Shown here piece after piece: positions 7,507-63,995 of a stretch of 64,000 bases of DNA (its first letter is position 1; every line of letters starts with the position of its first letter). Both the position numbers and the translations under genes were made by a program. The notes beneath the pieces are model-generated. The model worked only from the letters and a program-made list of their open reading frames with translations. It was not told where the DNA came from and did not search any database. This DNA comes from Phyllobates terribilis. Its lineage: Eukaryota. The stretch spans positions 52,762,001 to 52,826,000 of the forward strand of contig NW_027362769.1 in assembly GCF_046119375.1 (NCBI RefSeq), given 5' to 3'.

Positions 7507-10500
7507 TTATGTTACTCTGCTGTCATTTGGTGGTGATGAGAAGTCTGGCCCAATCCAGCCCTTGTTCATTTTGATAAGGGTCAGCTTGTCAGCATTGTCA
7601 ATTGACAGGCGAGTGCGCTTATCAGTTATAATTCCCCCAGCGGCACTAAAAACACGCTCCGATAACACGCTAGCGGCAGGGCAGGCCAGGACCTCCAAGG
7701 CGTACAGAGCGAGTTCATTCCAAGTGTCCAGCTTGGATACCAAATAATTAAAAGGCACAGAGGAATCACGGAGGACGCTGGTATGGTCGGCAAGGTACTC
7801 CCTCACCATCTTTTGAAAGTTTCCACTCCTTGTGAGAGTACCCTCCGCCTCAGGGCCTGTAAGCTGTGCGGGTGTCAGAAAACTGTCCCAGAACGTTGAC
7901 AGTGTTCCCCTGCCTCTGCTGGATTGGAGTTGCATCTCTCTCGCCTGTACGCCTTGGTTGGGCAACGAACTGTGACCTCTGCCGCTAGCGTGTTCAGATG
8001 GGAATTTTTTTAAGAGTTCTGCAGCAAGGGCCTTCTGGTACTGCCCCATTTTTGTAGACCTCTCCACCTCAGGAATAAGAGAGTGAAAGTTCTCCTTGTA
8101 GCGGGGGTCTACAAGTGTCACCAACCAGTAATGACTGTCACCCAACATTTTGACAACGCGAGGGTCACGGTTAAGGCAGCGTAACATAAAGTCAGCCATG
8201 CGTGCCAGACAGGTAACGGGCAAGATTTCCGTGTCCTCACCAAGATGACGACTGACCATGCTCTCCTCCTCCTCCTCTTCCTCCTCCCCCCTGTCCTCAG
8301 GCCACCCACGCTGAACTGACGGTATGACACTTGTACAGGTACTACCGTCTACAACGCATGATAGCAGATCCTGTTCTTCCTCCTCCTCCTCCTCCTCTCC
8401 CTCATTGTCCCCCAATGCACATTGGCATGAGATGAGGCTGGGCTGTGTGTAATCGCCCGCTATGGCTTCTTGATCCATCTCATCATACTCTGGCTACAAT
8501 GCCTCCTCTTTAATTCTATGCAGAGAGCGTTGCAAAAGACAGACAAGTGGGATGCTGACACTAATGATGGCGTCATCGCCACTCACCATCTTGGTGGCCT
8601 CCTGAAAGTTTGTCAGGATGGTACATATGTCAGACATCCAGGTCCACTCCTGAGGTCTTATGTGTGGAGTCTGACCTGAATATCGACGACCTTGTTGCAG
8701 CTGGTACTCCACAACTGCTCTCTTCTGCTCACAAATCCTTTGCAACATGTGGAGGGTAGAGTTCCAACGTGTGGGGACATCACACACCAGTCGGTGTGCC
8801 GGAAGCTGCAAACTCTGCTGCAACACAGCAAGGGCGGCAGAAGCTGTAGCCGACTTGCGAAAATGAGCTGACAGGCGGCATACTTTCACGAGCAGATCTG
8901 GCAACTCGGGGTACAATTTAAGAAACCGCTGAACCACGAGGTTAAGCACATGAGCCAGGCATAGTACGTGTGTGATCTCACCTCGCCTCAGAGCCGCCAC
9001 CAGGTTACGGCCATTGTCACACACGACCATGCCGGGATGTAGGTTCAGCGGTCTCAGCCACAGATCTGCCTGCTCTTTCACAGCTGTCCACAACTCACAA
9101 GCAGTGTGAGGTTTATCACCTAAGCTTATGAGTTTCAGCACAGCCTGTTGCCGCTTGGCGGAGGCTGTACTGCAATGCTTCCAGCTTGTAACTGATGTGG
9201 TGATATCTGAGATGGAGGCTGAACATGAGGAGGAGGATGCGCAGGAGCTGTACACTGTGGGGGCAACTCTGACTGACATAGGGCCCGCAATCCTCGGTGT
9301 GGGGAGGATGTGTTCCGTCCCAAGGTCTGACTGGGTCCCGGCTTCCACTATGTTTACCAAGTGTGCCGTCAGAGAGCTGTACCGTCCCTGGCCACAAGCA
9401 CTTGTCCACGTGTCCGTTGTCAGGTGGACTCTCCCAGTAACTGCGTTGTTGAGGGCACGACAGATGCTTTGGGACACGTGCTTGTGTAGTGCGGGGATGG
9501 CACACCGGGCAAAATAGTGTCGGCTGGGGACCGAGTACCGAGGGACGGCCACCGCCATAAGATTGCGGAAGGATTCCGTCTCCACCAGCCTAAAAGGCAG
9601 CATTTCCAACGCAAGCAGTCGTGAAATGTGCGAATTTAGGACTGTGGCCTGTGGGGCGTTAGCTGCGAATTTCCGCTTTCGTTCAAAGGTCTGGGATATG
9701 GACAATTGAACGCTGCGGTGGGACGTGGACGTGGACGTTGATGCTGTTTCTTGAGAAACTGCCATAACAAGTGAAGACTGAGAGGAGGGGGCATTTTTAC
9801 ATGCAGTATGGACAGGGGATTGCCTTGCACACACAACAGGGGGTTCTATTGCATGCACAACAGTGGAAAAAGCAGTGGTGACACCCGCTGACACTGGTTG
9901 TGGACCCTGGGTTTCGCCCCACAAAGTCGGGTGCTTTGCTGCCATGTGCCTGATCATGCTGGTGGTGGTCAGGCTGGTAGTTTTGTCACCCCTGCTGATG
10001 CTGGCATGGCAGGTGGAACATACGGCCTTTTTGGGGTTATCAGCAGAGTCTTTAAAAAAATTCCAGACTCTGGAAGACCTACCGCTTGTACTGGCAACGT
10101 CCCTCGTGTTGGTGTTACGGGGAACGGTTGCCTGCCTTCTGTCTGCGGCCACCACACTGCTTCTTCCTGCCTGTTGGGGTACTCTGCCTCCCTCCCCCTG
10201 TGTGCTGCTGGCCTCACTCTGCATGTCCTCCTTCCACGTTGGGTCAGTTACTAGATCATCCACCACCTCCTCCTCTTCCACTTGCGCACCACGATCCTCC
10301 TCCTCACTTCCTGGCAATTGTGTCTCGTCATCGTCCACCTCTTGTGACAGATTGCCAACGTCGACTTCCTGTGGCCGTGGCTGTTCAAATATTTGGGCAT
10401 CGCAACATGGGATCTCCTCTTCCACCACTTCAAGCGTATCAGGCGAGGGGCCCAAATATGGAAATGGACCAGTGAACAGCTCTTCAGAGTGTCCAAGTGT

Positions 10501-10860
10501 GGGATCACTTGCTGTCTGACGACACTCGGCATGGTGGGAGGAAGGAGCATCAGGGTGAGGAGGAGTATGCGGTCGAGACTCACGGCTACTAAGAGTTGAC
10601 CGTGTGGAAGACAGACTGGAGGTGGTGGTGCCCAGGTAACTGGAAGTATTATCTGCTATCCAATTAATAACCTGTTCACACTGATCAGTTCTCAATACTG
10701 GTGTTGTTCTGTGCTTCCCTAGTAATTTGGTCAAGAAGTGGGAGCGAGAAGATGTGGCTGTTGGTTGTGGCACATTTTCACCTTGGCCACGGCCCCGTCC
10801 TCTGCGCGAACCATCACCAGAACGTCCACTTCCACGTCCCTTGCCACGCGCCTTGCCCAT
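7507..10860 (-). pseudogene. hAT transposase (BED finger, DDE, C-terminal dimerisation domain), about 1117 codons with one in-frame TAG at 8494-8496
   Basis: ORFs 8494-10860 and 7507-8478 are in the same frame. Motifs: VWNFF..CSTC..SMIRHMAAKH (BED), LTTDTWTS, VVCDNGRN, CLAHVLNL, TRWNST, SERVFS. Confidence 0.93.
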
Positions 10861-12629
10861 TGTAAATGAAGTAAAATAGCTTATACTTGCACTATCAATG
10901 GAAAAAGGGTAATAAAGAGTAGATTAGAACCGTGGAAGAGGAAAACCACAGTTATTGTTTACTGGGGTATACCACACTTTTTTAAATAGAGATATTTGCG
11001 GCTGAACAGTGAGCGACACACTCAAACTGCTTTTTTTTTAGATATCAAAGGCCCAAAACTGGATAGTACAGCGATTTGACCCGTGGAACTGCGAAACCAC
11101 ACTGGGATGTTGGGCCTACACAAGACTATTTTCAACAGATATATTTTTGTGTCACAACAGTCAGGAGACACTACTGTTTTTCTTTACGGAAAAAACTACC
11201 AAAAGCTGAATAATAGAGATTTTTTACCGTGGGATGGCAAAACCACAGTTATTGTTTACTGGGGTATACCACACTTTTTTAAATAGAGATATTTGCGGCT
11301 GAACAGTGAGCGACACACTCAAACTGTTTTTTTTTTTTTAGATACAAATGGCCCAAAATGGATAATACAGAGGTTTGAACCGTGGAAGTGCAAAACAACA
11401 CTTCTGTTTCTCTAGCCCACACCAGACTATTTTCAACAGTTATATTTGTGTCTGAAAAATCAGAGACACGCTTTTTTTTTGGGGGGGGGGGGGCACACCT
11501 AAAGGTTAATAAGACGGGTATTTGTACAGTGTGAAGGAGGAAAAAAAAGGAGGATTTAGATGAAAAAAAAAGGATTTTTCCTGGCCCCCGACACCTGGTG
11601 GTAATTCCAGCAATTTCAGCAACAGGAGCACACAGGACTGTAATGCAGCGTTTGCTGGTATAACCACTGGGTCTCCTATACAGCCTGCCTGCCTGGTATC
11701 TGGGATGGATATTAGTCCTGAAAAGGACTGTTTGTTTGTTCTGGCAGCCTTTACAGACCCTACACTAACTATTTCGCAGTTTATATCTCTCCCTAAATCA
11801 GCAGCGCTGTCCCTACACTGTCTAATCCGGAGCGACTGTGTCCAAGATGGCGGCGCCCGGTTTTAAATACTCGAGGTGACGCTGTGCGGCCAGCCAATCA
11901 CTGTAATGCCCACAACCAACATGGCTGCAGCATTACAGTGACTGGCTGGCAATCCCTGCATGTTCATTGGCTCTGTAAAGAGCGCCAAACATGCAGGGCG
12001 GAGACCCGAGCTCCCGCCCGAGTAACCCGGAAATGCTCGGTGCTCGCCGAACATCCCGAGTAGCGTGATGCTCGGGCGAGTACCGAGCAGTGTCGAGCAT
12101 GTGTTTATTCTATCACTGGAGGGAATAATATAATAGTTAGGACTCTGGAGGTATCAATACTGAGAGAATGACTCTCCATATAACTATCTTGTATGCCAAC
12201 TATTCTGGGTGATGTGCACGTCCTGTCTGTTTTTACACATGTCTTGTGTCACTTGCTCCTATTGTGTGATAACTGTTTTATAATATATATAAATGTTTAA
12301 TAAAGGTTTTCTATTTTTATAATTCAGTCGAAGGGCTTTATTGTTGCTGTTTTTCTTCGTTTGTTAATGTCCTTCATTAGCTATGTCCTCTACTTACGGT
12401 CCTTAGCATATTCCATTTGGGTGTGACTCATCTTCTTAGGATATCATGCTGTATTGTCTGGGGTATATCCTTAACATTCAGATCGCCTGTATAGCACAGG
12501 ATTGCAGCAGCATCCCTGTGCTATACAGGCTGTCACAGCTGCAGAGGGAGAAGTTACTTGGGTCATGCACTGCGCATGACCAAAGTAATTTCCTGCTGTC
12601 TGATGACCCGGATGTTGTCGTGAGCATTT

Positions 12630-12880: not shown

Positions 12881-14576
12881 CTCCTCCACTATATCTACAT
12901 GGTCATGATCTCCCTCTTGCTCCTAATTTTTCAATGGTGTGTCTAATGCCCTACTATATATTTTTTAAAGGCATACCTGTAAAATCATCTTACATATATA
13001 CAGTTAGGTCCATATATATTTGGACAGAGACAACATTTTTCTAATTTTGGTTCTAGACATTACCACAATGAATTTTAAACAAAACAATTCAGATGCAGTT
13101 GAAGTTCAGACTTTCAGCTTTCATTTGAGGGTATCCACATTAAAATTGGATGAAGGGTTTAGGAGTTTCAGCTCCTTAACATGTGCCACCCTGTTTTTAA
13201 AGGGACCAAAAGTAATTGGACAGTTTAAATAATTGTAAATAAAATGTTCATTTCTAGTACTTGGTTGAAAACCCTTTGTTGGCAATGACTGCCTGAAGTC
13301 TTGAACTCGTGGACATCACCAAACGCTGTGTTTCCTCCTTTTTGATGCTCTGCCAGGCCTTCACTGCGGTGGTTTTCAGTTGCTGTTTGTTTGTGGGCCT
13401 TTCTGTCTGAAGTTTAGTCTTTAACAAGTGAAATGCATGCTCAATTGGGTTGCGATCAGGTGACTGACTTGGCCATTCAAGAATATTCCACTTCTTTTCT
13501 TTAATAAACTCCTGGGTTGCTTTGGCTTTATGTTTTGGGTCATTGTCCATCTGTAGTATGAAACGACAACCAATCAGTTTGGCTGCATTTGGCTGGATCT
13601 GAGCACACAGTATGGCTCTGAATACATCAGAATTCATTCGGCTGCTTCTGTCCTGTGTCACATCATCTATAAACACTAGTGACCCAGTGCCACTGGCAGC
13701 CATGCATGCCCAAGCCATCACACTGCCTACGCCGTGTTTTACAGATGATGTGGTATGCCTTGGATCATGAGCTGTACCACGACTTCGCCATACTTTTCTC
13801 TTTCCATCATTCTGGTAGAGGTTGATCTTGGTTTCATCTGTCCAAAGAATGTTCTTCCAGAACTGTGCTGACTTTTTTAGATGTTTTTTTAGCAAAGTCC
13901 AGTCTAGCCTTTTTATTCTTGATGCTTATGAGTGGCTTGCACCGTGCAGTGAACCCTCTGTATTTACTTTCATGCCGTCTTCTCTTTATGGTAGATTTGG
14001 ATATTGATACGCCTACCTCCTGGAGAGTGTTATTAGAAACACAGCCCAAAAATCAAGATTAAGGTGTACGTGGGGAGAACCACTCCCCCCAAACACCCCT
14101 CTATACCGACTCATTGGAAACATTTTTTTATAAAGAGAAAGGCAGAGTCTTCACGGCTTAGAAAATAGTACATATTTTATTAAACAAAGTTCATTAAAAA
14201 AGAGATCCCAAAACATCAGGATAAAGTGCAAGGTGAACAATGATATGAACGACCAGACTAGACACAGCCCAAAATATAAGGCGCTATATACTCATTGGAT
14301 ATGTGCAAAGTTGCAAGAATTGGTACCTAAACAGCCATGGAGTTGAGACACTACACCTGTAGCCCCCGTTACTAAACAGGGAATAATCAATCACTTATTA
14401 TTAGAGCCAGAGTGACGTGAAAATATATAGTACCCCTGTGGCTCCGAGAGCTTATTGAGGGTGATGGTCACACCATGGCTGGCAGGCTGACAGTAGGCTG
14501 GCCAAACAGTGGCGTGCCTATGTGGCACAATACAAAGAGTGACCAGACCTGCAGTATATAAAGTGCTACATGCTAT

Positions 14577-23377: not shown

Positions 23378-24498
23378 TTATTATGTATAGCACAGTCCCT
23401 TAGTATATAGTGTACTCACTTATTATGTATAGCGCTATCCTTAGTTATATAGTTTCCTCTTTTATTATGTATAGCGCCGTCCCTTATTATGTACCATCCT
23501 CTCTAGCGGCTCACAGTTGGGGGATCATACTGTGTTGGGGTCAGCATACTTTACCCTGGGAGTTGAGGTGGGGTACAATAGGGTCATTATACTGTGCATG
23601 TGGAGGAATTCACCATGGGGGTTTCATACTGTGTTTGGGGGGCCCTTTTATTGGCATCACACTTTATAGGGCAATGAAAGAGAGATCTAGGACGTCATCA
23701 GGAGGAAAATTACTATGTAAGGGATGGAAAGTTGTGAGATCTGATCTTTGGTGACCCCGACAATTATTTTAATTTTTTTTTTGTGGGGGGGTTCCCAATT
23801 AGAGCTTCTGCTATGGGGCCCCATGATTCCTATGTACGCCCCTGGTGGGAGCAATTCAAATGTTTTTTTGGTGGGTACACAGGGGAAGTCGGGAGACAAT
23901 ATACACTGCTCAAAAAAATAAAGTGAACACTCAAATAACACATCCTAGATCTGAATGAATGAAATATTCTCATTGAATACTTTGTTCTGTACAAAGTTGA
24001 ATGTGCTGACAACAAAATCACACAAAAATCATCAATGGAAATCAAATTTATTAACCAATGGAGGCCTGGATTTGGAGTCGCCCCCAAAATTAAAGTGGAA
24101 AAACACATTACAGGCTGATCCAACTTTGATGGAATGTCCTTAAAACAAGTCAAAAAGAGGCTCAGTATTGTGTGTGGCCTCCACGTGCCTATATGACCTC
24201 CCTGCAACGCCTGGGCATGCTTCTGATGAGGTTGCGGCTGGTCTCCTGTGGGATCTCCTCCAGGATGGCACATCAATGTGAGTTGTGGCAAGAAGGTTGC
24301 TGTGTCTGTCAGCGTAGTGTCCAGAGGCTGGAGGCGCTACCAGGAGACAGGCCAGTACACCAGGAGACATGGAGGGGGCTGTAGGAGGGCAGCAATCCAG
24401 CAGCAGGACCGCTACCTCCGCCTTTGTGCAATGAGGAATAGGAGAAGCACTGCCAGAGCCCTGCAAAATGACCTCCAGCAGGCCGCAAATGTTCATGT

Positions 24499-25346
24499 AA
24501 TGACCAAAACAAAAGCAGATCACCAAAGGTGAAATGCCATCTCCAAATCACTAAACCAAAAACCCAAACAAAAATCTAATAGGTATCTAAAAGTAAAACA
24601 AGTAGAGATATATCCTGAAGAAAAATATAAAGAGATACCCAAGACTCATTGGAGATCTATACAAAACATAATCTTTATTCATAGCAACATGTTATTCTAG
24701 ATAAATACATCACATACAGAGGTATTGGGGAAAGAGCAGCTAAAACAATAGGATACAGGGTATATAAACCCAAAATAGTAAGGAGACCGTAGCTAAAGCC
24801 CCAGATAGGTATAAATATCACATAAGCAATGATTACATATAGATAAAATATATCAGAGATGACTAGATTGTTTATGCTGAAATAAAGTGCATAGGACAGT
24901 GATTGAATCAAAATAAAACAACCGCTGAAGGCACTATACCATGCTGGCTCAGGGTAAGTATAAGAATCTGAAGTATCTCAGTCCATCTGAGTAGAGATGA
25001 GAGACCAGGGACTGATATAAATGAACAGCCTAACATTAGTTTAATCATATGACAATATACCGGCCAATGCCGTATAGATAATTACCTTGAGTCATGATAG
25101 AGATCAGGGGCTCGTGATAGCGGTCTGCAAAACGCCTCGACGCGCGTTTCGCCTCAGCTTCGTCAGGAGGCGTGGTTAGAATAAGAGGTGGGTCCTATTT
25201 ATATGAATGAAAAGTGTGTAACTGCCAATTGGCGCGCTATCCCCCGCGATGCCGCGCCCCCAGCGATGACGCGGACCGGCGTGCAGCCCGCGGGATGAGG
25301 AGGAGGAACGACGTCATCCCCCCCATCACCAAGGCAACCACGCACA
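24499..25346 (-). repeat. PLE 3' terminal repeat (pLTR)
   Basis: Matches 29144-29992. By eye the only difference found was GAAATAAAGTG vs GAAAAAAAAGTG. Confidence 0.95.
25133..25172 (-). ncRNA. Minimal type I hammerhead ribozyme (3' repeat copy)
   Basis: CGCCTC-CTGACGA-A-GC(TGAG)GC-GAAAC-GCGC-GTC-GAGGCG: 6-bp stem I, intact core, palindromic loop III, GUC cleavage triplet. Confidence 0.9.
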
Positions 25347-26029
25347 GGCCCCGACGCCGCCGGAGCGCCGCAGCGCGCGAGAGAGAGCGCGTCCACAGAT
25401 AACCAGACAGGAGGGACGGAGTACAAACACAGGTACTCAATGCTCACTAGTGGCGTCATTGCTGCCAGGGGGTGGCCAGTCCCCTGCCACCAATGAAGAC
25501 AGATAGGAGGACAGTGGGGAATAATAATGACGACCTGCCCTGACCTATAACAGTAGAGGGTATAGGACCAATATCTAATAAATCATACCAGATACCATGA
25601 GGTCCTGAGTTATAGTCAGGATTAATAATCCCCCGAATGCTATGCACAGTATGTCAAAATGGGTTTGCATAATTAATGATAAACCAGTGGAAAAAGCCAG
25701 TACAATAAATATAAATACAATAGTTATATAGATGGCTAAATCCATGTACATAAATAGATAGACCACAAGTAGACAGAAATCTTGATAGGAGACCGTCTGG
25801 AAAAATCACTCAAAGGTGTATGATGTTTAGTCCATTATTTAGTAAAACGTCAGAGCCTCGTGTCAGAATAGACAAAAACGATGATGAAGTGATAGTCAAT
25901 AGATGACACAGCACTAGGGATGTCAAAAGGAATAAAATCAATAATGAGTAAATACAACACAACTCATGTGGGAATAAAAGACAGCATTTATAGGAACCCA
26001 TCATTAAAAGTAGCGCAACGAAAAGGTAT

Positions 26030-28504
26030 TTACAGAAAAGACTTGAAGCTAACAGACTCGTTCAAACCAGAGGGCATAACCGTGTCCAATGTGATAATCC
26101 AGCGTGTCTCTTTTTGGAGCAATTTTTGTTTAGTATTGCCTCCCCTAATGCCCATATAGACTCTATCGATGCCACGAGCTGAAAGGCCCTTAGGGTTACA
26201 GCCGTGGGCATCGAAAAAGTGCCTGGGAATAGATTTAAGTTGTTGAGGGTCTGAGCAAGAGGCGGCATTTTTTATATCTCTAATATGTTCCTGAATGCGG
26301 ATTTTGAGGGGTCTTGTGGTCATTCCTATGTAGACTAGATCACACGGACATCGAATATGATAAACGACCGCTTCCGTTTCACATGTGATGTGATGTAAGA
26401 TTTTAAAGTTTTTATTCCTACCGGAGTCTGAAAATTCACCCGTTTTGGTGATATATTTACAGATTGAGCATCTGCCACAGGCGGAACAGCCCCATGGTGG
26501 GCCCTTACTGCCAGGGAAAAATTGTTTTTTTGGAGGGACATAGTGACTTCTGGAGACGATATCTCCGAGGGTCTTAGCTCTACGCCATGTTATAAGTGGT
26601 TGTTTAGTAAGCTGACCGCGTAGATCACGGTCCGTAAGTAAAATAGGCCAATGTTTAGAAAAAATCTTTTTAATATTGATCCAATTAGTATTAAATGTAG
26701 TGATAAATCTAGGTAATATATCAGTGTTTGTTTTCTTTTTAGCATTAGACAGTAGGCTTTGTCTACTAATGGCTTTAGCTCGTAAGAAGCCACGTTTAAT
26801 GTCCTGCTTTGGATAGCCCCTATCCTGAAATCTACGAGATAGATCATATGCTTGATGGCGAAAATTATTGTCGTTAGAACAGATACGTCGTGCCCGTAAA
26901 AATTGCCCTACAGGGATAGAGCTTTTTAGTTTTGGCGGGTGTGAGGAAGAATAGTGTAATAAAGCGTTAGTGGAGGTCTCCTTCCTGAAAATGTCAGTCT
27001 CAATTCTATTATCTTCTGATTTGGTGATAAGTAAGTCTAAAAAGTCAACTGATGTCTGACTATATTTCCAGGTTAAATGAATATTACGAGTATTTTTATT
27101 GAGACTGTGAAGGAATGTCTCCAATTGCGAGATGGAGCCCTGCCAGATAAACAATATATCATCAATATATCTTGACCAGGACATGACGGCTTCATGGCCC
27201 CGTGTGTTAAGGACCGTATCCCTCTCCCACAGCCCCAGGAACAAGTTAGCATATGAGGGCGCACAAGACGCCCCCATTGCTGTGCCCTGGAGCTGCAGGA
27301 AGGGGCGGTCCTTAAACACAAAATAGTTGTGTCTAAGAATAAAATCCAAAAGAGAGAGAATGAATAGTATAAGATCTGGATCAAGATTTGTCATGGTCAG
27401 AAAGAATTGTACAGCCGTCATGCCCTGGTCGTGACGTATCGAGGTATATAAGGACTCCACATCACAAGTAACAAGCCACATATCTTCCTCAAGAGTAATC
27501 CCGTCTAGTCGTTTTAGAACATCAGTGGTATCCCTCACGAAAGATGGGAGAGTCTCCACGCATCTTTGGAGATAAAAATCCACGAATTTACATATAGGTT
27601 CACAAAGACCCCCAATACCCGAGACAATGGGTCTGCCTGGTGGGTGGAGGGGGTCTTTGTGAACCTTGGGCAAAAGATAAAAGGTCGGCACCACTGGATG
27701 TTCCAAAAGTAGTGCCTCTTTCATTTTTGGAAGGATAACCAAGTTATCCACGGCATCATCCAGTAGATGTGAAAGTTCTCTCGCAAAGGTTGTGGTAGGA
27801 ATGTTATCCAGCCTTCTATAATTTTGAACATTATTAAGTTGTCTGAAGGCTTCACGTTCGTATGCTAGGACAGACCATAATACAACGTTCCCGCCCTTGT
27901 CCGCCCTTTTGATGACAATGTCCTTTAGGTTTTTGAGTTCACGGATAGCCTGTCTTTGTGGTCTAGACAGGTTATCCTCAAGGATACCCTCCCTAAGTTG
28001 GAGAAGGTCTTGTTTAACTAACTTGACAAAAATGTCAACCTGAGAGCAGGTAGACAGGGGCGGGAACGCATGTGAACGTCTATACAGATGTGTGGGGAAT
28101 TTCGTAGTATCATCAGCGCTCTGTTCAGCCGCCAAAGACTCGAGATTCTGTAAGGCCCGAATCTCGGCATCCGAAGAGAGCGCTTCTGATCTATGTGGTG
28201 ATGGACTAAAGTACTTCTTAAAGATAAGCTTACGAGCGAATAATTCAAGATCCTTAATGGTGGTAAAGTAATCATAGCCCTCCACCGGTGAAAAAGAGAG
28301 GCCCCTAGACAGCACCTCAATCTGTGGCTTAGATAGAGTGTGTTTAGATAAATTAATTACCTTTAAGTTCTCTTTCCTCTCTTTTGTCTGAAATTGTATG
28401 GATGATTTTTCTTTTGTATATATGGAGTCCTGAGCTGCTGAAGAGTGTTTATGGGCAATGCCTCGCCGGGCAGAGCCCGTTTGTCTAAAGAATGTCCTCC
28501 ACAT
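26030..28504 (-). CDS. Penelope-like RT + GIY-YIG endonuclease polyprotein (824 aa, uninterrupted)
   Basis: VINLS, VIKRADKGGNVV, GRPIVS, CDVESLYTSI, GTAMGA, RYIDD, CSACGRCSIC linker, VVYHIRCPCDLVYIGMTTRPLKIRIQEH. Confidence 0.95.
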   Translation of the reverse strand: MWRTFFRQTGSARRGIAHKHSSAAQDSIYTKEKSSIQFQTKERKENLKVINLSKHTLSKPQIEVLSRGLSFSPVEGYDYFTTIKDLELFARKLIFKKYFSPSPHRSEALSSDAEIRALQNLESLAAEQSADDTTKFPTHLYRRSHAFPPLSTCSQVDIFVKLVKQDLLQLREGILEDNLSRPQRQAIRELKNLKDIVIKRADKGGNVVLWSVLAYEREAFRQLNNVQNYRRLDNIPTTTFARELSHLLDDAVDNLVILPKMKEALLLEHPVVPTFYLLPKVHKDPLHPPGRPIVSGIGGLCEPICKFVDFYLQRCVETLPSFVRDTTDVLKRLDGITLEEDMWLVTCDVESLYTSIRHDQGMTAVQFFLTMTNLDPDLILFILSLLDFILRHNYFVFKDRPFLQLQGTAMGASCAPSYANLFLGLWERDTVLNTRGHEAVMSWSRYIDDILFIWQGSISQLETFLHSLNKNTRNIHLTWKYSQTSVDFLDLLITKSEDNRIETDIFRKETSTNALLHYSSSHPPKLKSSIPVGQFLRARRICSNDNNFRHQAYDLSRRFQDRGYPKQDIKRGFLRAKAISRQSLLSNAKKKTNTDILPRFITTFNTNWINIKKIFSKHWPILLTDRDLRGQLTKQPLITWRRAKTLGDIVSRSHYVPPKKQFFPGSKGPPWGCSACGRCSICKYITKTGEFSDSGRNKNFKILHHITCETEAVVYHIRCPCDLVYIGMTTRPLKIRIQEHIRDIKNAASCSDPQQLKSIPRHFFDAHGCNPKGLSARGIDRVYMGIRGGNTKQKLLQKETRWIITLDTVMPSGLNESVSFKSFL

Positions 28505-29103
28505 TCTTCCTCAGAGGTAGATGAAATGCTTGAGGCCGACTGAGACCTAGTGCGTAATTTATTGTGTCTATTTTTATGATGCCAGTGGTAAATATTCTTG
28601 GATTGATAATCCTCAAGATCCCTCAGATATTTTTTTGTTTTGAAATTCTGGATCTCAGATTCCCATTTGGAAAGTTCTTCCTCCAAAGATAGATCAAAGT
28701 TTTTATACTCATCTATTGGGAGTAGAGATTGAATTTTCTACCACAGGGAATCAATCTCTTTTTCGATAGGTTCTAGCGCCTTTTTATCGGCACCAATAAG
28801 AATTTCTAGTAGAGTGCGTGAACATTTAGTAAGTGTCTCTTCCCACTTACCAGTGAGCACTGAATCTTCAGTGTCCAAAGTGGGAAAGAGTTGGATGCGG
28901 AGCCCTCTGGGTATAATATCTTTACATAGATAAATTTCTAAGGCGGCTTTGTTCCACCATAGTTTAATTCTTTTTTTGAGTAGATCTTTAATTTGCTGCT
29001 TCAAGTCTTTAATGTCACTTGTATCCTTAGAGGTAGTTGACTTCTCACCAAATACCGTCCCGAGTTGAATAACTCGGGCTTTATCTCTCTTTCTAAAGTC
29101 CAT
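28363..29103 (-). pseudogene. PLE upstream ORF (about 246 codons, one internal TAG at 28738-28740)
   Basis: ORF-track pieces 28738-29196 and 28363-28686 are in one frame. ATG at 29103 (MDFRKR). YL..DIIPRGLRIQLFP..KWEETL resembles the PLE N-terminal motif. Different frame from RT, overlapping it by 142 nt. Confidence 0.75.
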
Positions 29104-29143
29104 AAATCCTGTTAAGGAATCTGCAAAAACAATGCAATCAAGT

Positions 29144-29992
29144 AATGACCAAAACAAAAGCAGATCACCAAAGGTGAAATGCCATCTCCAAATCACTAAA
29201 CCAAAAACCCAAACAAAAATCTAATAGGTATCTAAAAGTAAAACAAGTAGAGATATATCCTGAAGAAAAATATAAAGAGATACCCAAGACTCATTGGAGA
29301 TCTATACAAAACATAATCTTTATTCATAGCAACATGTTATTCTAGATAAATACATCACATACAGAGGTATTGGGGAAAGAGCAGCTAAAACAATAGGATA
29401 CAGGGTATATAAACCCAAAATAGTAAGGAGACCGTAGCTAAAGCCCCAGATAGGTATAAATATCACATAAGCAATGATTACATATAGATAAAATATATCA
29501 GAGATGACTAGATTGTTTATGCTGAAAAAAAAGTGCATAGGACAGTGATTGAATCAAAATAAAACAACCGCTGAAGGCACTATACCATGCTGGCTCAGGG
29601 TAAGTATAAGAATCTGAAGTATCTCAGTCCATCTGAGTAGAGATGAGAGACCAGGGACTGATATAAATGAACAGCCTAACATTAGTTTAATCATATGACA
29701 ATATACCGGCCAATGCCGTATAGATAATTACCTTGAGTCATGATAGAGATCAGGGGCTCGTGATAGCGGTCTGCAAAACGCCTCGACGCGCGTTTCGCCT
29801 CAGCTTCGTCAGGAGGCGTGGTTAGAATAAGAGGTGGGTCCTATTTATATGAATGAAAAGTGTGTAACTGCCAATTGGCGCGCTATCCCCCGCGATGCCG
29901 CGCCCCCAGCGATGACGCGGACCGGCGTGCAGCCCGCGGGATGAGGAGGAGGAACGACGTCATCCCCCCCATCACCAAGGCAACCACGCACA
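29144..29992 (-). repeat. PLE 5' terminal repeat (pLTR, truncated in its CpG-rich part)
   Basis: Direct repeat of 24499-25346. Confidence 0.95.
29779..29818 (-). ncRNA. Minimal type I hammerhead ribozyme (5' repeat copy)
   Basis: Identical to 25133-25172. Confidence 0.9.
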
Positions 29993-31206
29993 AATGTTCA
30001 TGTGTCTGCACAAAAGGTTAGAAACCGACTCCATGAGGGTGGTATGAGGGCCCGATGTCCACAGTTGGGAGTAATGCTCACAGCCCAACACAGTGCAGGA
30101 CACTTGGCCTTTGCCTCAGAACACCAGGATTGGCAAAGTTGCCACTGGCGCCCTGTGCTCTTCACAGATGAAAGCAGGTTCACACTGAGCACATGTGACA
30201 GACGTGACAGAGTCTGGAGATGCCGTGGAGAGCGATCTGCAGCCTGCAACATCCTTCAGTATGACCGGTTTGGCAGTGGGTCAGTAATGGTGTGGGGTGA
30301 CATTTCTTTGGAGGGCCGCACAGCCCTCCATGTGCTCGCTAGAGGTAGCCTGACTGCCATTTGGTACCGAGATGAGATCCTCAGACCCCTTGTGAGACTA
30401 TATGCTGGTGCGGTTGGCCCTGGGTTCCTCCTAATGCAGGACAATGCCAGACCTCATGTGGCTGGAGTGTGTCAGCAGTTCCTGCAAGATGAAGGCATTG
30501 AAGCTATGGACTGGCCCACCCGTTCCCCAGACCTGAATCCGATTGAGCACATCTGGGACATCATGTCTCGCTCCATCCACGTACGTCACGTTGCACCACA
30601 GACTGTCCAGGAGTTGGCGGATGCTTTAGTCCAGGTCTCGGAGGAGATCCCACAAGACACCATCCGCAACCTCATCAGCAGCATGCCCAGGCATTGTAGG
30701 GAGGTCATACAGGCACGTGGAGGCCACACACAATACTGAGACTTATTTTGACTTGTTTTAAGGACATTACATCAAAGTTGGATCAGCCTGTAGTGGGTTT
30801 TTCCACTGTAATTTTGGGGGTGACTCCAAATCCAGGCCTCCATTGGTTAATAAATTTGATTTCCATTGATGATTTTTGTGTGATTTTGTTGTCACCACAT
30901 TCAACTTTGTACAGAACAAAGTATTCAATAAGAATATTTCATTCATTCAGATCTAGGATGTGTTATTTGAGTGTTCCCTTTATTTTTTTGAGCAGTGTAC
31001 TTGTTGATGTAATGCAGCACAGGAGCAGATAAAGGTGCTAGCATTCCTTGAGACTCAAAAACTGGTGACAAATTCCTCTTAAAAACCACTTGTTTCAATA
31101 AATATGCGACACAGAGGAGTAAAATGCAAGTTACAGAAATAAAAGGTGGGCATCTTGGGGGGTTTGATTCTGCAGCATAACAGTACATACACACATATAC
31201 TATATA

Positions 31207-50927: not shown

Positions 50928-52577
50928 CAGTTATATGAAAAAGTTTGGGCACCCCTATGAATCTTAAGCTTAATGTTTTATAAAAATTTGTGTTTTTGCA
51001 ACAGCTATTTCAGTTTGATATATGTAATAACTGTTGGACACAGTAATGTTTCTGCCTTGAAATGAGGTTTATTGTGCTAACAGAAAATGTGCAATCTGCA
51101 TTCAAACAAAATTTGACAGGTGCATAAGTACGGGCACCCTTATCATTTTCTTGTTTTAAATACTCCTACCTACTTTTTACTGACTTACTAAAGCACTTTT
51201 TTTGGTTTTGTAACCTCATTGAGCTTTGAACTTCATAGCCAGGTGTATGCAATCATGAGAAAAGCTACTTAAAGTGGCCACTTGCAAGTTGTTCTCCTGT
51301 TTGAATCTCCTCTGAAGAGTGGCATCATGGGCTCCTCAAAACAACTGTCAAATGATCTGAAAACAAAGATTATTCAACATAGTTGTTCAGGCGAAGGATA
51401 CAAAAAGCTGTCTCAGAGATTTAACCTGTCAGTTTCCACTGTGAGGAACATAGTAAGGAAATGGAAGAACACAGGGACAGTTCTTGTTAAGGCCAGAAGT
51501 GGCAGGCCAAGAAAAACATCTGAAAGGCAGAGAAGAAGAATGGTGAGATCAGTCAAGGACAATCCTCAGACCACCTCCAGAGAGCTGCAGCATCAACTTG
51601 CTGCAGATGGTGTCACTGTGCATCGGTCAACTATACAACGCACTTTGCACAAGGAGAAGCTGTATGGGAGAGTGATGCGAAAGAAGCCGTTTCTGCAAGC
51701 ACGCCACAAACAGAATCGGCTGAGGTATGCAAAAGCACATTTGGAGAAGCCAATTTCTTTTTGGAAGAAGGTCCTGTGGACTGATGAAACCAAGATTGAG
51801 TTGTTTGGTCATACAAAAAGGCGTTATGCATGGCGGCAAAAAAACACAGCATTCCAAGAAAAACACTTGCTACCCACAGTAAAATTTGGTGGAGGTTCCA
51901 TCATGCTTTGGGGCTGTGTGGCCAATGGCGGAACCGGGAATCTTGTTAAAGTTAAGGGACGCATGGATTCCACTCAGTATCAGCAGATTCTTGACAATAA
52001 TGTTCAAGAATCAGTGACAAAGTTGAAGTTACGCAGGGGATGGATCTTTCAGCAAGACAATGATCCAAAACACCGCTCCAAATCTACTCAGGCATTCATG
52101 CAGAGGAACAATTACAATGTTCTGGAATGGCCATCCCAGTCCCCAGACCTGAATATCATTGAACATCTGTGGGATCATTTGAAGAGGGCTGTCCATGCTC
52201 GGCGACCATCAAACTTAACTGAACTGGAATTGTTTTGTAAAGAGGAATGGTCAAAAATACCTTCATCCAGGATCCAGGAAATCATTCAAAGCTACAGGAA
52301 GCGACTAGAGGCTGTTCGTTTTGCAAAAGGAGGATCTACTAAATATTAATGTCACTTTTCTGGTGAGGTGCCCATACTTATGCACCTGTCAAATTTTGTT
52401 TGAATGCAGATTGCACATTTTCTGTTAGTACAATAAATCTCATTTCAAGGCAGAAACATTACTGTGTCCAACAGTTATTACATATATCAAACTGAAATAG
52501 CTGTTGCAAAAACACCAATTATTATAAAACATTAAGCTTAAGATTAATAGGGGTGCCCAAACTTTTTCATATAACTG
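50928..52577 (+). mobile_element. Apparently intact autonomous Tc1 (IR/DR-type) transposon, 1650 bp
   Basis: TA TSDs; TIRs of about 211 bp with 6 mismatches counted by eye; intact ORF. Confidence 0.95.
51327..52349 (+). CDS. Tc1 transposase, 340 aa, DD34E
   Basis: ATG at 51327 (MGSSKQLS). Paired-like [22 protein letters not shown], exactly 34 residues to SPDLNIIE. No stops. Confidence 0.95.
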   Translation: MGSSKQLSNDLKTKIIQHSCSGEGYKKLSQRFNLSVSTVRNIVRKWKNTGTVLVKARSGRPRKTSERQRRRMVRSVKDNPQTTSRELQHQLAADGVTVHRSTIQRTLHKEKLYGRVMRKKPFLQARHKQNRLRYAKAHLEKPISFWKKVLWTDETKIELFGHTKRRYAWRQKNTAFQEKHLLPTVKFGGGSIMLWGCVANGGTGNLVKVKGRMDSTQYQQILDNNVQESVTKLKLRRGWIFQQDNDPKHRSKSTQAFMQRNNYNVLEWPSQSPDLNIIEHLWDHLKRAVHARRPSNLTELELFCKEEWSKIPSSRIQEIIQSYRKRLEAVRFAKGGSTKY

Positions 52578-54753: not shown

Positions 54754-56310
54754 CAGACAGACCAAAAGTTTGGACACACCTTCTCATTTAAAGATTTTTC
54801 TGTATTTTCATGACTATGAAAATTGTACATTCACACTGAAGGCATCAAAACTATGAATTAACACATGTGGAATTATATATTTAACAAAAAAGTGTGAAAC
54901 AACTGAAAATATGTCTTATATTCTAGGTTCTTCAAAGTAGCCACCTTTTGCTTTGATGACTGCTTTGCACACTCTTGGCATTCTCTTTATGAGCTTCAAG
55001 AGGTAGTCACCGGAAATGGTCTTCCAACAATCTTGAAGGAGTTCCCAGAGATGCTTAGCACTTGTTGGCCCTTTTGCCTTCACTCGGCGGTCCAGCTCAC
55101 CCCAAACCATCTCGATTGGGTTCAGGTCTGGTGACTGTGGAGGCCAGGTCATCTGGCGTAGCACCCCATCACTCTCCCTCTTGGTCAAATAGCCCTTACA
55201 CAGCCTGGAGGTGTGTTTGGGGTCATTGTCCTGTTGAAAAATAAATGATGGTCCAACTAAACGCAAACCGGATGGAATAGCATGCTGCTGCAAGATGCTG
55301 TGGTAGCCATGCTGGTTAAGTATGCCTTCAATTTTGAACAATACCCCAACAGTGTCACTATCAAAGCACCCCCACACTATCACACCACCTCCTCCATGCT
55401 TCACGGTGGGAACCAGGCATGTAGAGTCCATCCGTTCACCTTTTCTGCGTCGCACAAAGACACGGTGGTTGGAACCAAAGATCTCAAATTTGAACTCATC
55501 AGACCAAAGCACAGATTTCCACTGGTCTAATGTCCATTCCTTGTGTTCTTTAGCCCAAACAAGTCTCTTCTGCTTGTTGCCTGTCCTTAGCAGTGGTTTC
55601 CTAGCAGCTATTTTACCATGAAGGCCTGCTGCACAAAGTCTCCTCTTAATTGTTGTTGTAGAGATGTGTCTGCTGCTAGAACTCTGTGTGGCATTGACCT
55701 GGTCTCTAATCTGAGCTGCTGTTAACCTGCGATTTCTGAGGCTGGTGACTCGGATAAACTTATCATCAGAAGCAGAGATGACTCATGGTCTTCCTTTCCT
55801 GGGGCGGTCCTCATGTGAGCCAGTTTCTTTGTAGCGCTTGATGGTTTTTGCAACTGCACTTGGGGACACTTTCAAAGTTTTCCCAATTTTTCGCACTGAC
55901 TGACTTTCATTTCTTAAAGTAATGATGGCCACTCGTTTTTCTTTGCTTAGCTGCTTTTTTTCTTGCCATAATACAAATTCTAACAGTCTATTCAGTAGGA
56001 CTATCAGCTGTGTATCCACCAGACTTCTGCACAACACAACTGATGGTCCCAAACCCATTTATAAGGCAAGAAATCCCACTTATTAAACCTGACAGGGCAC
56101 ACCTGTGAAGTGAAAACCATTTCCGGTGACTACCTCTTGAAGCTCATCAAGAGAATGCCAAGAGTGTGCAAAGCAGTCATCAAAGCAAAAGGTGGCTCCT
56201 TTGAAGAACCTAGCATATAAGACATATTTTCAGTTGTTTCACACTTTTTTGTTAAGTATATAATTCCACATGTGTTAATTCATAGTTTTGATGCCTTCAG
56301 TGTGAATGTA
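54754..56310 (-). mobile_element. Tc1-like transposon, same family as 1879-3508, defective
   Basis: C-terminal ORF 54916-55512 has an intact SPDLNPIEM. +1 A in the run after the ATG, a TGA after GRP, and about 70 bp of the outer TIR missing. Confidence 0.92.
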
Positions 56311-61631: not shown

Positions 61632-62700
61632 CTAAACCACCGCCGCCTGCAGGACCCTGCGTCCCAAGGCCGCATCGGCGGAAGCACTCACGTCCACTTT
61701 ATAAAATTTTGTAAAAGTGTGAATGGAGCGCCAGGTAGCCGCCCGGCAGAGCTGCGCTGCCAAGGCCCCCTGACGAAAAGCCCACGACGAACCAACAGCT
61801 CTCGTGGAATGAGCTCGAACCTTAACCGGACAAGGCTCGCCCTTGAGCCGGTACGCCTCCAAGATAGCCGAACGTATCCACCGAGCTATAGTGTCCTTGG
61901 AAACCCGCTGACCACGCCGACGACCAGCAGGAATCACAAAAAGAGAGTCCGACTTCCGAAACCCTTGCGTGATTGTAAGATAGAACTTCAATGCCCGCAC
62001 CAAATCCAACGAGTGCAAGGCCCGCTCCTTTGGACTCTTCGGTTTCGGACAGAGGGAGGGCAACACGATGTCCTGATTGACGTGGAAACGCGACACCACT
62101 TTAGGCATAAAATCGCAACGGGTACGAAGCACCATGCGATCTGAGTGGAAATCCAGAAAAGGGGGCGAGCAAGACAGTGCCGCCAACTCAGAAACCCTTC
62201 TCAAAGAGGTGACCGCCACCAGGAAGGCCACCTTCCAAGAAAGCAAGTAAAGCGTAGCTGAATCCATAGGCTCAAACGGCCCATGCTGAAGAGCCTCCAA
62301 GACTAGATTGAGCCGCCAAGGAGCCACAAACGCCCTCCGAGGTGGAAACTGACGTTCAACCCCGCGAAAAAACGAACGCACATCCCTGCGCGAGGCAATA
62401 CCCTTTCGAAAAAGCACGGATAGTGCAGATACCTGACCCCGCAAGGTACCAACCGCCAGACCCTTGGACAAACCACATTGCAGAAAAGCCAAGAAGTTGG
62501 GAATGGAAAAAACCCTCGGGTTCCTTGACGATCCAGAACACCATGAATAGAAGGCCTCCCAAGTTCTGTGATAAATCCTAGTCGTAGCTGGACCTCTGGC
62601 CGCCCGCAAGGTGGCAATGACCTCGGCTGAAAACCCACGACGGGTCAAGATCACGGTCTCAAGTGCCACGCCGTTAAACGAAGTGACTTCAGGTCCGGAT
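61632..62700 (-). CDS. DIRS tyrosine recombinase (C-terminal catalytic region; true start uncertain)
   Basis: SLRRVSEL (R), AHSTRAV (HxxR), ATWRS..TFTKFY (W, Y). Confidence 0.85.
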
Positions 62701-63995
62701 GGCGAATGGGCCCTTGGGTTAACAGGTCCGGGCGAAGAGGCAGTGGAAACGGAGGCGCCGCCAGAAGAGACACCAGCGTTGAATACCACGCCCTCCACGG
62801 CCAATCCGGCGCCACCAAAATCGCCGAAATTCGTTTGAGTTTGATCCGCCGGATCACCAGAGGAAGTAAGGATACCGGCGGAAACACGTAGATCAGCTCG
62901 AACTGGTCCCACGGGGCCACTAGAGCATCTACCGCCACAGCCTTCGAGTCCCTGTACCTGGACATGAACGTCGGAATCCTGGCGTTCAGCGTGGATGCCA
63001 TCAAGTCCACTTGGGGAGTCCCCCAGTGGGAGCACAGCAGTGCAAAAACTTCCGGATGAAGACTCCATTCTCCGGGATCCACCTGCTCGCGACTGAGGAA
63101 GTCTGCCGTGATATTCAGCACTCCTGGGATGTGAATCGCGGAGATGGCTGGAACCCTGGACTCGGCCCATACCAGGATCCGAGAGACCTCCATCATGAGT
63201 CTGGAACTCCTCGACCCGCCCTGATGGTTGATATACCAGCAGACCGCTCAAAGGGACCGTCCAATGTCGGAGGCAGAGAAATATCGCTCTGAACTCCAGG
63301 ATGTTGATCGGCAGAGACGACTCATCTGACGACCAGACCCCCTGAACCCAGAGATCGTTCCAAACCCCACCCCCCCAGCCAGTCAGGCCGGCATCGGTGG
63401 TAATGACCGACCACCATGGGAGGAGGAAGGATTTCCCCAGGGATAAAGCCTCCGGATGTAACCACCATCCAAGAGACTCTCGCACCCTGCGGGAGATACC
63501 GACACAGCGATCCAGCGAAGCCGGCGATCGATCCTAATGGGTCAGAATAAGATCTTGGAGACCCCGGGAATGAAATTGTGCAAACGGTACCGCTTCCATT
63601 GCCGCCACCATCAGACCCAGAAGGCGCATACACTTCCGAAGGGACATCGCCATCGCCGACATCATAGCCTGGACGTGGTGACGAAGGTTCGCTTGTTTGT
63701 TCGGAGGCAGGGACACCACTGCCCGTACCGTGTCGAAATGCATCCCCAAGAACAGGATTGACTGCGACGGCTCCAATGACAACTTCTTCCAATTGACCAG
63801 CCACCCGAAGTCCTCCAGGTGCTGAAGGGAGAGATAGCGAGCTGTCACCGCCTCCTCCGCTGTGGGCGACACAATTAACAGGTCGTCCAGGTAGGGGAGA
63901 ATCGTAACTCCTTGCCTTCGAAGGAGCGCCATGAGCGGCGCCAGAATCTTTGTAAAAACCCTGGACGCCAAGGCCAACCCGAATGGTAGGGCCAC
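62651..63995 (-). pseudogene. DIRS pol (RT - RNase H - methyltransferase-like), disrupted
   Basis: LPFGL..YLDDLL (63534-63995). In-frame TAG at 63534-63536, then ITTDAGLTGWG and INILEFRAI. A deletion near 63240 removes the expected SDN motif and shifts frame. HIPGVLNITADFLSR and DLMAS..FPP..APDWP in 62651-63196. Confidence 0.9.

Follow-up and report, generated by a model that had tools for sequence, protein, structure and literature searches.

A two-frame Penelope-like element family of Phyllobates terribilis that probably makes its reverse transcriptase-endonuclease by programmed -1 frameshifting

The window analysed here, a 64-kb stretch of the Phyllobates terribilis genome (NW_027362769.1:52,762,001-52,826,000; all positions are those of the window, and the genome searched comprises 10.6 Gb), carries a 5.5-kb Penelope-like element (PLE) at 24499-29992 on the minus strand. 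The data suggest that the family to which this element belongs makes its reverse transcriptase-endonuclease (RT-EN) by programmed -1 frameshifting at a U_UUU_UUA heptamer, a mechanism that we consider probable and that would yield both the product of a first open reading frame (ORF1p) and a fusion protein. The original prediction had noticed an uninterrupted RT-endonuclease frame of 824 aa, and this frame is indeed open from ATG to stop at 28504-26030 on the minus strand with its motifs intact. It is however the second of two open reading frames (ORFs): the single-ORF view overlooked a 246-codon ORF1 that lies upstream. The two-ORF frameshift layout is well supported by conservation among the sequences compared, and it has been at most partly described before.

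ORF1 consists of the helical N-terminal PLE domain followed by a basic tail, overlaps the -1 frame of ORF2 by ~145 nt and corresponds by homology to residues 1-200 of single-ORF PLEs. Its codons indicate that ORF1 is under purifying selection: 83 of the 90 conserved columns use more than one codon across 19 lineages of 56-100% ORF1 identity. A structure model predicts three long helices and a disordered tail (predicted local distance difference test score, 67.6); it had no match in the PDB at E <= 0.001, and ORF1 had none in Pfam. ORF2 matches RVT_1, and its ADKGG, YIDD, CxxCxxC and GIY-YIG-type motifs are intact, the endonuclease (EN) being of the CCHH type; a Pfam search returned no GIY-YIG match, and the EN was assigned by comparing its motifs with published rows. 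The CxxCxxC linker (CX2-5CxxC), at ORF2 residue 673, is common to Nematis and Naiad too and is not diagnostic alone. As a separate observation, ORF1 codons 12-19 (window ~29070-29047) appear constrained at the nucleotide level, the Q12, G14 and F17 codons being invariant and G18/E19 being written GGT GAG in 17/19 lineages, which possibly reflects a splice donor or a protein-binding RNA element.

The two-frame layout is present in copies of 80-99% identity, and this conservation rules out a private frameshift mutation as its origin. The heptamer occurs in all 19 other rows of the close alignment (two of these rows are arms of one insertion and five are near-identical) and stands in the ORF1 frame in 86 of the 92 loci, partly duplicated, whose ORF1 match spans the site; the six exceptions are the window, which counts twice, and four single-copy variants. 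In one of these four (L084) an extra T in the U-run creates a natural ORF1-ORF2 fusion frame of 1029 codons, while its tandem neighbour keeps a 270-codon ORF1 frame. In lineages of 56-100% ORF1 identity, ORF1 usually stops 42-46 codons past the heptamer; the -1 frame of intact copies has 798-825 codons. Only 7 of the 90 conserved columns mentioned above use a single codon, and 4 of these 7 lie at the junction. The codon preceding the heptamer encodes R, H, P or S and always ends in T (21/21 lineages, chosen among heptamer-bearing loci). These comparisons drew on 23 near lineages, from which L044 and L048 were left out (other DNA is joined past the site); the codon alignment left out L023 and L062, which had no start match. 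At the family level, the overlap thus holds an in-frame X_XXY_YYZ heptamer that is kept beyond coding need, as expected of a frameshift site, although the window copy itself does not have one.

To avoid circularity, the genome was also searched with two distant homologues, which yielded 60 distant loci. Relative to ORF1, the RT frame is -1 in 41 of them, 0 in 12 and +1 in a single locus, the other 6 having no RT match. After removal of 10 of the 41 -1 copies (short overlap or short RT frame), 31 open-overlap copies were left, and 11 of their 13 lineages have a U6A, U6G, A6C or A7 heptamer that is in frame with ORF1 and precedes the RT N1 motif by 32-49 codons. In three of these lineages, and in 5/7 copies of a fourth, the RT frame contains no Met upstream of N1. 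At the protein level, 22 of 156 homologues terminate 24-61 residues past an FL[G/D/E] motif, and 28 read on in frame as far as N1; homologues and relatives with a species label come from several frog families and from a newt.

The predicted fusion would measure ~1024 residues (1033 with exon 1; both calculated from coordinates), in keeping with the 1006-1082 codons of the single ORFs of sister families. In RT trees, which left out loci lacking a long RT frame and kept L092 as split despite a later insertion, the split and single-ORF families fall on opposite sides of one branch. When the distant lineages are added, the single-ORF clade is nested among split lineages (midpoint root, quick tree, no outgroup, long branches flagged), a topology that suggests that the split state is ancestral. 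Apart from these results, we noticed by eye, among the proteins, a second set of homologues that carry xKN close to their end, as A_AAA_AAC would be translated. In a distant multi-copy family (L164-L172), ORF1 ends past an SKN motif and the first RT match lies in frame 0 behind a stop. Distant two-ORF PLEs also form long head-to-tail arrays with a period of ~4.6-4.7 kb (C2:845042481-845163160 and C9:379924639-379954328).

Several observations weigh against programmed frameshifting. Control frames are not free of heptamers, which occur there in 4/13 and 2/13 distant lineages. A conserved downstream hairpin was sought and is not general (mean z -0.87 across 21 lineages, in a search that left pseudoknots aside): the hairpin at +8 reaches z -2.2 in the window's subfamily and is weak or absent in many lineages. 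The invariance of TTT says little, since Phe is mostly written TTT here (87:12); moreover, the same letters could be fixed by dual coding, as F-L in ORF1 and F-F-R in ORF2. The ORF2 frame has an AUG-UGG 4-7 codons before the heptamer; it has a purine at -3 and is kept in 21/21 lineages of the window's clade, the GAA and TGT codons at this AUG are invariant when only 2/42 upstream two-fold columns are, and the constraint on the AUG region exceeds what ORF1 coding alone predicts.

Separate initiation of ORF2 is a live rival because this AUG-UGG is kept in all 21 lineages beyond the needs of ORF1 coding. ORF2 would then be a protein of its own, started at the AUG at 28504 by reinitiation, leaky scanning or decapping after hammerhead cleavage, the U-run being a by-product of two-frame coding, and the window copy, whose heptamer change is silent in ORF2, could still make RT-EN. 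Retention of the A of the AUG in a lineage where ORF1 has undergone an E->A change also speaks for such a start. Still, we regard it as unlikely: distant lineages of the same layout have no Met at all before N1, and in one copy with an otherwise open 824-codon ORF2 (a single copy) a stop directly follows the AUG. The ORF1 stop lies ~140 nt downstream of the AUG, which is far for reinitiation, the preference for TGT before G can be explained by CpG avoidance (T:C 80:26), and dual coding would not be expected to place differing heptamer types at the matching position.

The invariable G after the heptamer also makes the site readable as a 3' splice site, and in all near lineages U6-AG could thus be the acceptor of an alternative intron that joins part of ORF1 to ORF2. 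PLEs do have introns, gene predictors link such frames by introns (P0008), and a donor-like G|GTGAG is found at ORF1 codon 18 in 17/19 lineages. This donor, however, is in phase 1 when entry into ORF2 through the acceptor requires phase 2, and the sole phase-2 GT that is invariant belongs to a Trp-Trp pair at codon 49 and does not fit the donor consensus. Given in addition that the upstream tract is purine-rich and that the A6C and A7 lineages have no such AG, we find splicing a very improbable explanation.

The window copy itself is a minor and probably crippled member of the family. A TAG at 28740-28738 interrupts its ORF1; all 19 other rows of the alignment have a sense codon at this place (which also rules out read-through of a stop at 28740). 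Its junction reads T TCT TTA instead of the T TTT TTA of these 19 rows. The 30-mer with this variant is found a single time in the assembly, whereas its U6A form has seven exact copies. With ORF1 stopped and the heptamer changed, this copy would not make the fusion, and the original prediction of an intact, candidate active copy is not borne out in the present assembly. None of the seven loci of at least 94% identity (six insertions) is complete with both frames open, and none of the 16 loci, among 62 examined, in which ORF1, heptamer and ORF2 are all open belongs to these seven. A single contig (depth 4) from another sample tempers this view of the copy, as it shares the 28743 variant and does not have the stop, position 28490 being uncovered; the ORF1 stop may be allele-specific or an assembly error.

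That the element is real is clear, and the PLE identity and the youth that the original prediction had recognized are supported. Besides the RT and GIY-YIG-type motifs, the element has pseudo-long terminal repeats (pLTRs), a target-site duplication (TSD) and hammerheads. It shows the variable TSD, the tail, the pLTRs derived from a partial tandem and the hammerhead in the pLTR that define EN-bearing (EN+) PLEs; the canonical single ORF is replaced by two overlapping ORFs that are kept across lineages, whereas the sister families do have it. The terminal repeats have the predicted length of about 848 bp (Table 1) and are 99.8% identical, but they differ by one substitution and one 1-bp indel where a single difference had been counted. 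The TSD is clean, as announced, with 11 bp flanking both sides (13 bp if two shared bases are counted), and 5/5 other copies of the interrupted Tc1 transposon that were examined have an empty site with a single TSD copy; the inverted repeats of this Tc1 span 360 nt (23902-24261 and 30640-30999) and are 95% complementary. Two fixed element 3' ends lie 59 nt apart, five of seven flank-joined ends falling at the window's site and two at the other. To call the insertion very young is fair in relative terms: the copy is 1.0-1.5% divergent from its five closest loci and bears 12 private changes in 3797 bp, absent from the seven close loci compared. A single-ORF sister family (L101-L130) has ~50 copies whose N-terminal 244 residues are identical or nearly so, mostly with open 1035-codon frames and many on small contigs; very recent amplification (or segmental duplication) is far more plausible for this family than for the window's subfamily. 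We also found 5' inversions with head-to-head arms, typical of PLE insertions, at L003/L006, L011/L025, L013 and L019.

Table 1. Features of the element and of its insertion site (window positions)
Feature	Position	Strand	Remark
Host Tc1-type DNA transposon interrupted by the PLE	23902-30999	+	DDE_3 match; inverted repeats
Target-site duplication, left copy	24488-24498	+	11 bp; 13 bp from 24486 with microhomology
3' pseudo-LTR	24499-25346	-	848 bp; terminates at the commoner of two fixed 3' ends (PLE tail)
Minimal type I hammerhead, 3' copy	25133-25172	-	predicted cut 25139/25138
ORF2	26030-28510	-	-1 frame; 826 codons stop to stop; RT, CxxCxxC linker, GIY-YIG endonuclease
ORF1	28363-29103	-	246 codons, +9 from predicted exon 1 and leader; TAG-interrupted in window copy
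GC-rich hairpin 7 nt past heptamer	28453-28478	-	window's subfamily; not general
U_UUU_UUA heptamer site, ORF1 frame	28486-28492	-	T>C at 28490 in window copy only
Predicted phase-1 intron	29121-29731	-	611 nt; contains the position matching the element's 3' end
5' pseudo-LTR	29144-29992	-	849 bp; 5'-truncated tandem copy of element end
Predicted exon 1 coding end	29732-29741	-	10 nt: ATG + 7 nt, then splice donor
Minimal type I hammerhead, 5' copy	29779-29818	-	predicted cut 29785/29784
TATA-like box (predicted)	29842-29849	-	copy at 25196-25203
Target-site duplication, right copy	29993-30003	+	11 bp

The pLTRs suggest how the transcript may be organized, with a predicted TATA box, start site, 10-nt coding exon and 611-nt intron. 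Of 31 non-redundant pLTRs, 22 have a YATAWA box at -43 to -33 from the hammerhead core; nine other windows gave 0-2 such boxes. This spacing predicts a start site at ~29819, the first base of hammerhead helix I. Past the ribozyme, 30 of the 31 pLTRs carry an ATG, 7 further nt and then a donor motif, a pattern that none of eight control spacings or windows showed. In 18/20 lineages, a YAG acceptor precedes the ORF1 Met by 17 nt, and the predicted splice gives an open in-frame start in 10/10 loci that have both sites. Short contigs from four low-share runs that are possibly RNA showed no joint at the predicted intron or between the two ORFs, which bears neither way on expression, splicing or cleavage. 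Introns at the 5' end are known from Penelope and Chlamys (PMC8557442). Both fixed 3' ends map within the predicted intron, and this arrangement agrees with an internal start of RT on unspliced RNA, of the kind described for the anole element (PMC11167929).

The two hammerheads are identical and dimeric in design, two points on which the original prediction holds, and the predicted cut positions were also correct. Their core is intact, but perfect they are not: these are minimal ribozymes with a helix II of only 2 bp and an Rfam RF00163 score of 29.3 bits, below the gathering score of 34. Across lineages, the core and the palindromic helix III are kept while helix II is variable. The palindrome with self-complementary loop III and the unpaired base before helix II support a design that fits action as a dimer; both are known from the minimal hammerheads of other PLEs, whose cleavage is poor even in dimeric form (PMC4209133). 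The type I core, the unpaired base between positions 9 and 10.1 and the G10.1-C11.1 pair are shared with these as well; the 2-bp helix II sets the ribozyme apart both from these hammerheads and from that of the anole Poseidon element PAc. In folding predictions, the lowest-energy fold of the sequence is not the hammerhead. The hammerhead dimer (-34.7 kcal/mol) is feasible and lower in energy than two monomer minima (-32.0 kcal/mol); a non-catalytic dimer is predicted to be lower still (-41.7 kcal/mol), since helix II duplicates the 3' arm of helix I. If the predicted start at ~29819 is right, both copies would be carried by one read-through RNA, and a cut 43 nt upstream of the start codon would take off a capped leader of 35 nt; what role this would have is speculation. 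The ribozyme is predicted to be the most 5' part of the transcript and to lie between the cap and the start codon, whereas in PAc it overlaps the ORF start; PAc shares with the window element two RT start sites that give the tail (PMC11167929). The anole hammerhead requires protein for cleavage, and insertion in vitro does not depend on it (PMC11167929), so that lack of cleavage in vitro would be a weak refutation of activity. Among dimers of Xenopus retrozymes, 1/9 cleaved (bioRxiv 10.64898/2026.07.22.740005). Hammerhead biology and the dimer idea are in any case already in print.

That the window holds a single-ORF, fully intact and currently active copy, with a cis-dimer hammerhead as its main interest, is a reading to which we give almost no credence: the open ORF2 with its intact motifs, the near-identical repeats, the clean TSD, the favourable hammerhead dimer and the contig that does not have the stop all agree with it, but ORF1 is homologous to the start of single-ORF PLEs and under purifying selection, the assembly shows both the stop and a heptamer change found nowhere else in it, and the competing non-catalytic dimer is lower in energy.

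If programmed frameshifting is indeed the mechanism, the following scheme may be proposed. RNA polymerase II would start ~30 nt below the TATA box, at the hammerhead, and splicing would remove the 611-nt intron. Most ribosomes would make ORF1p alone, the helical domain with its conserved basic tail, and a minority would slip at codon ~206 to produce an ORF1-RT-EN fusion of ~1030 aa, the length of the single ORF in sister families; slippage would thereby set a Gag/Pol-like excess of the structural protein. The template would be the unspliced RNA, on which target-primed reverse transcription would begin at either of two fixed internal sites, and the hammerheads would cut only as dimers or with the help of protein. 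It is tempting to extend this scheme to amphibian Neptune-type PLEs in general: frameshifting would be ancestral and prevailing, at least four heptamer types would have been swapped, the single ORF would be a later loss, and a hammerhead between cap and start codon would remove RNA from translation. We put this broader proposal forward tentatively and find it rather less likely than not to hold as a whole.

Similar -1 sites are known from retroviral gag-pol genes, U_UUU_UUA in HIV-1 and A_AAA_AAC in MMTV/HTLV. The element shares with gag-pol the heptamer, its reading phase, a short overlap, the order of structural then enzyme ORF and an ORF1-only tail past the site; it differs by having no LTR, protease, integrase or capsid and by a stimulator that is weak or lineage-specific. 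Among PLEs, the Fig. 1 legend of PMC8557442 allows for an ORF1 "separated by a frameshift with a pseudoknot", and an ORF1 upstream of RT, a frameshift joint and a coiled-coil-like ORF1 are common to such PLEs and to the present family. A pseudoknot is part of that description, whereas no conserved downstream structure was found here in a search that did not extend to pseudoknots. The clade so marked is reportedly that of the EN-deficient Athena/Terminon elements. Athena/Terminon elements have no EN and insert at telomeres; the present element has an EN and a TSD-flanked interstitial insertion in a Tc1.

EN+ PLEs are described as single-ORF elements in the literature covered (PMC11167929, PMC4209133, PMC8557442, PMC6431247, PMC3846280, PMC5408684, PMC5718144 and the bioRxiv preprint). 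We call the family Neptune-type from its linker and from a by-eye resemblance to published rows, the trees having no named Neptune reference: the RT and EN segments look like the Neptune1_Ac and DreriNep1 rows of the Neptune clade, and set against the description of that clade (PMC8557442, PMC3846280), the present element has an EN and carries its N-terminal domain as a separate ORF in another frame. A literature search on slippery sites or ribosomal frameshifting in PLEs found nothing by title or abstract start; Repbase, Arkhipova 2006 and the 2017 Terminon paper were outside this search, which does not establish absence from print. A search joining Neptune or Athena with an ORF1 frameshift found only PMC8557442 and PMC5408684.

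How PLE proteins are expressed and how PLEs transpose is largely open, the sole purified vertebrate PLE being a single-ORF Poseidon. If frameshifting operates as proposed, annotations that take the ~820-aa frame for the whole protein are truncated, many copies have been wrongly called dead on account of a frameshift, and biochemistry should use the fusion protein. A genome that holds split and single-ORF sister families together with several heptamer types also offers a natural test set for recoding in cells of vertebrates. The surprise is lessened by the fact that frameshifted ORF1s in PLEs are partly in print.

Besides the element, other frames were noticed in the window. An open frame of 633 codons with no Pfam match lies at 61632-63533 (-). 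A hAT transposase with zf-BED and hAT dimerisation domains occupies 7507-10923 (-) in one frame, as 809 and 328 codons with a single stop between them. Additional Tc1/mariner transposase frames are found at 54916-55782 (-), 13254-13925 (-) and 51273-52349 (+), the last being a 358-codon open frame with helix-turn-helix and DDE domains.

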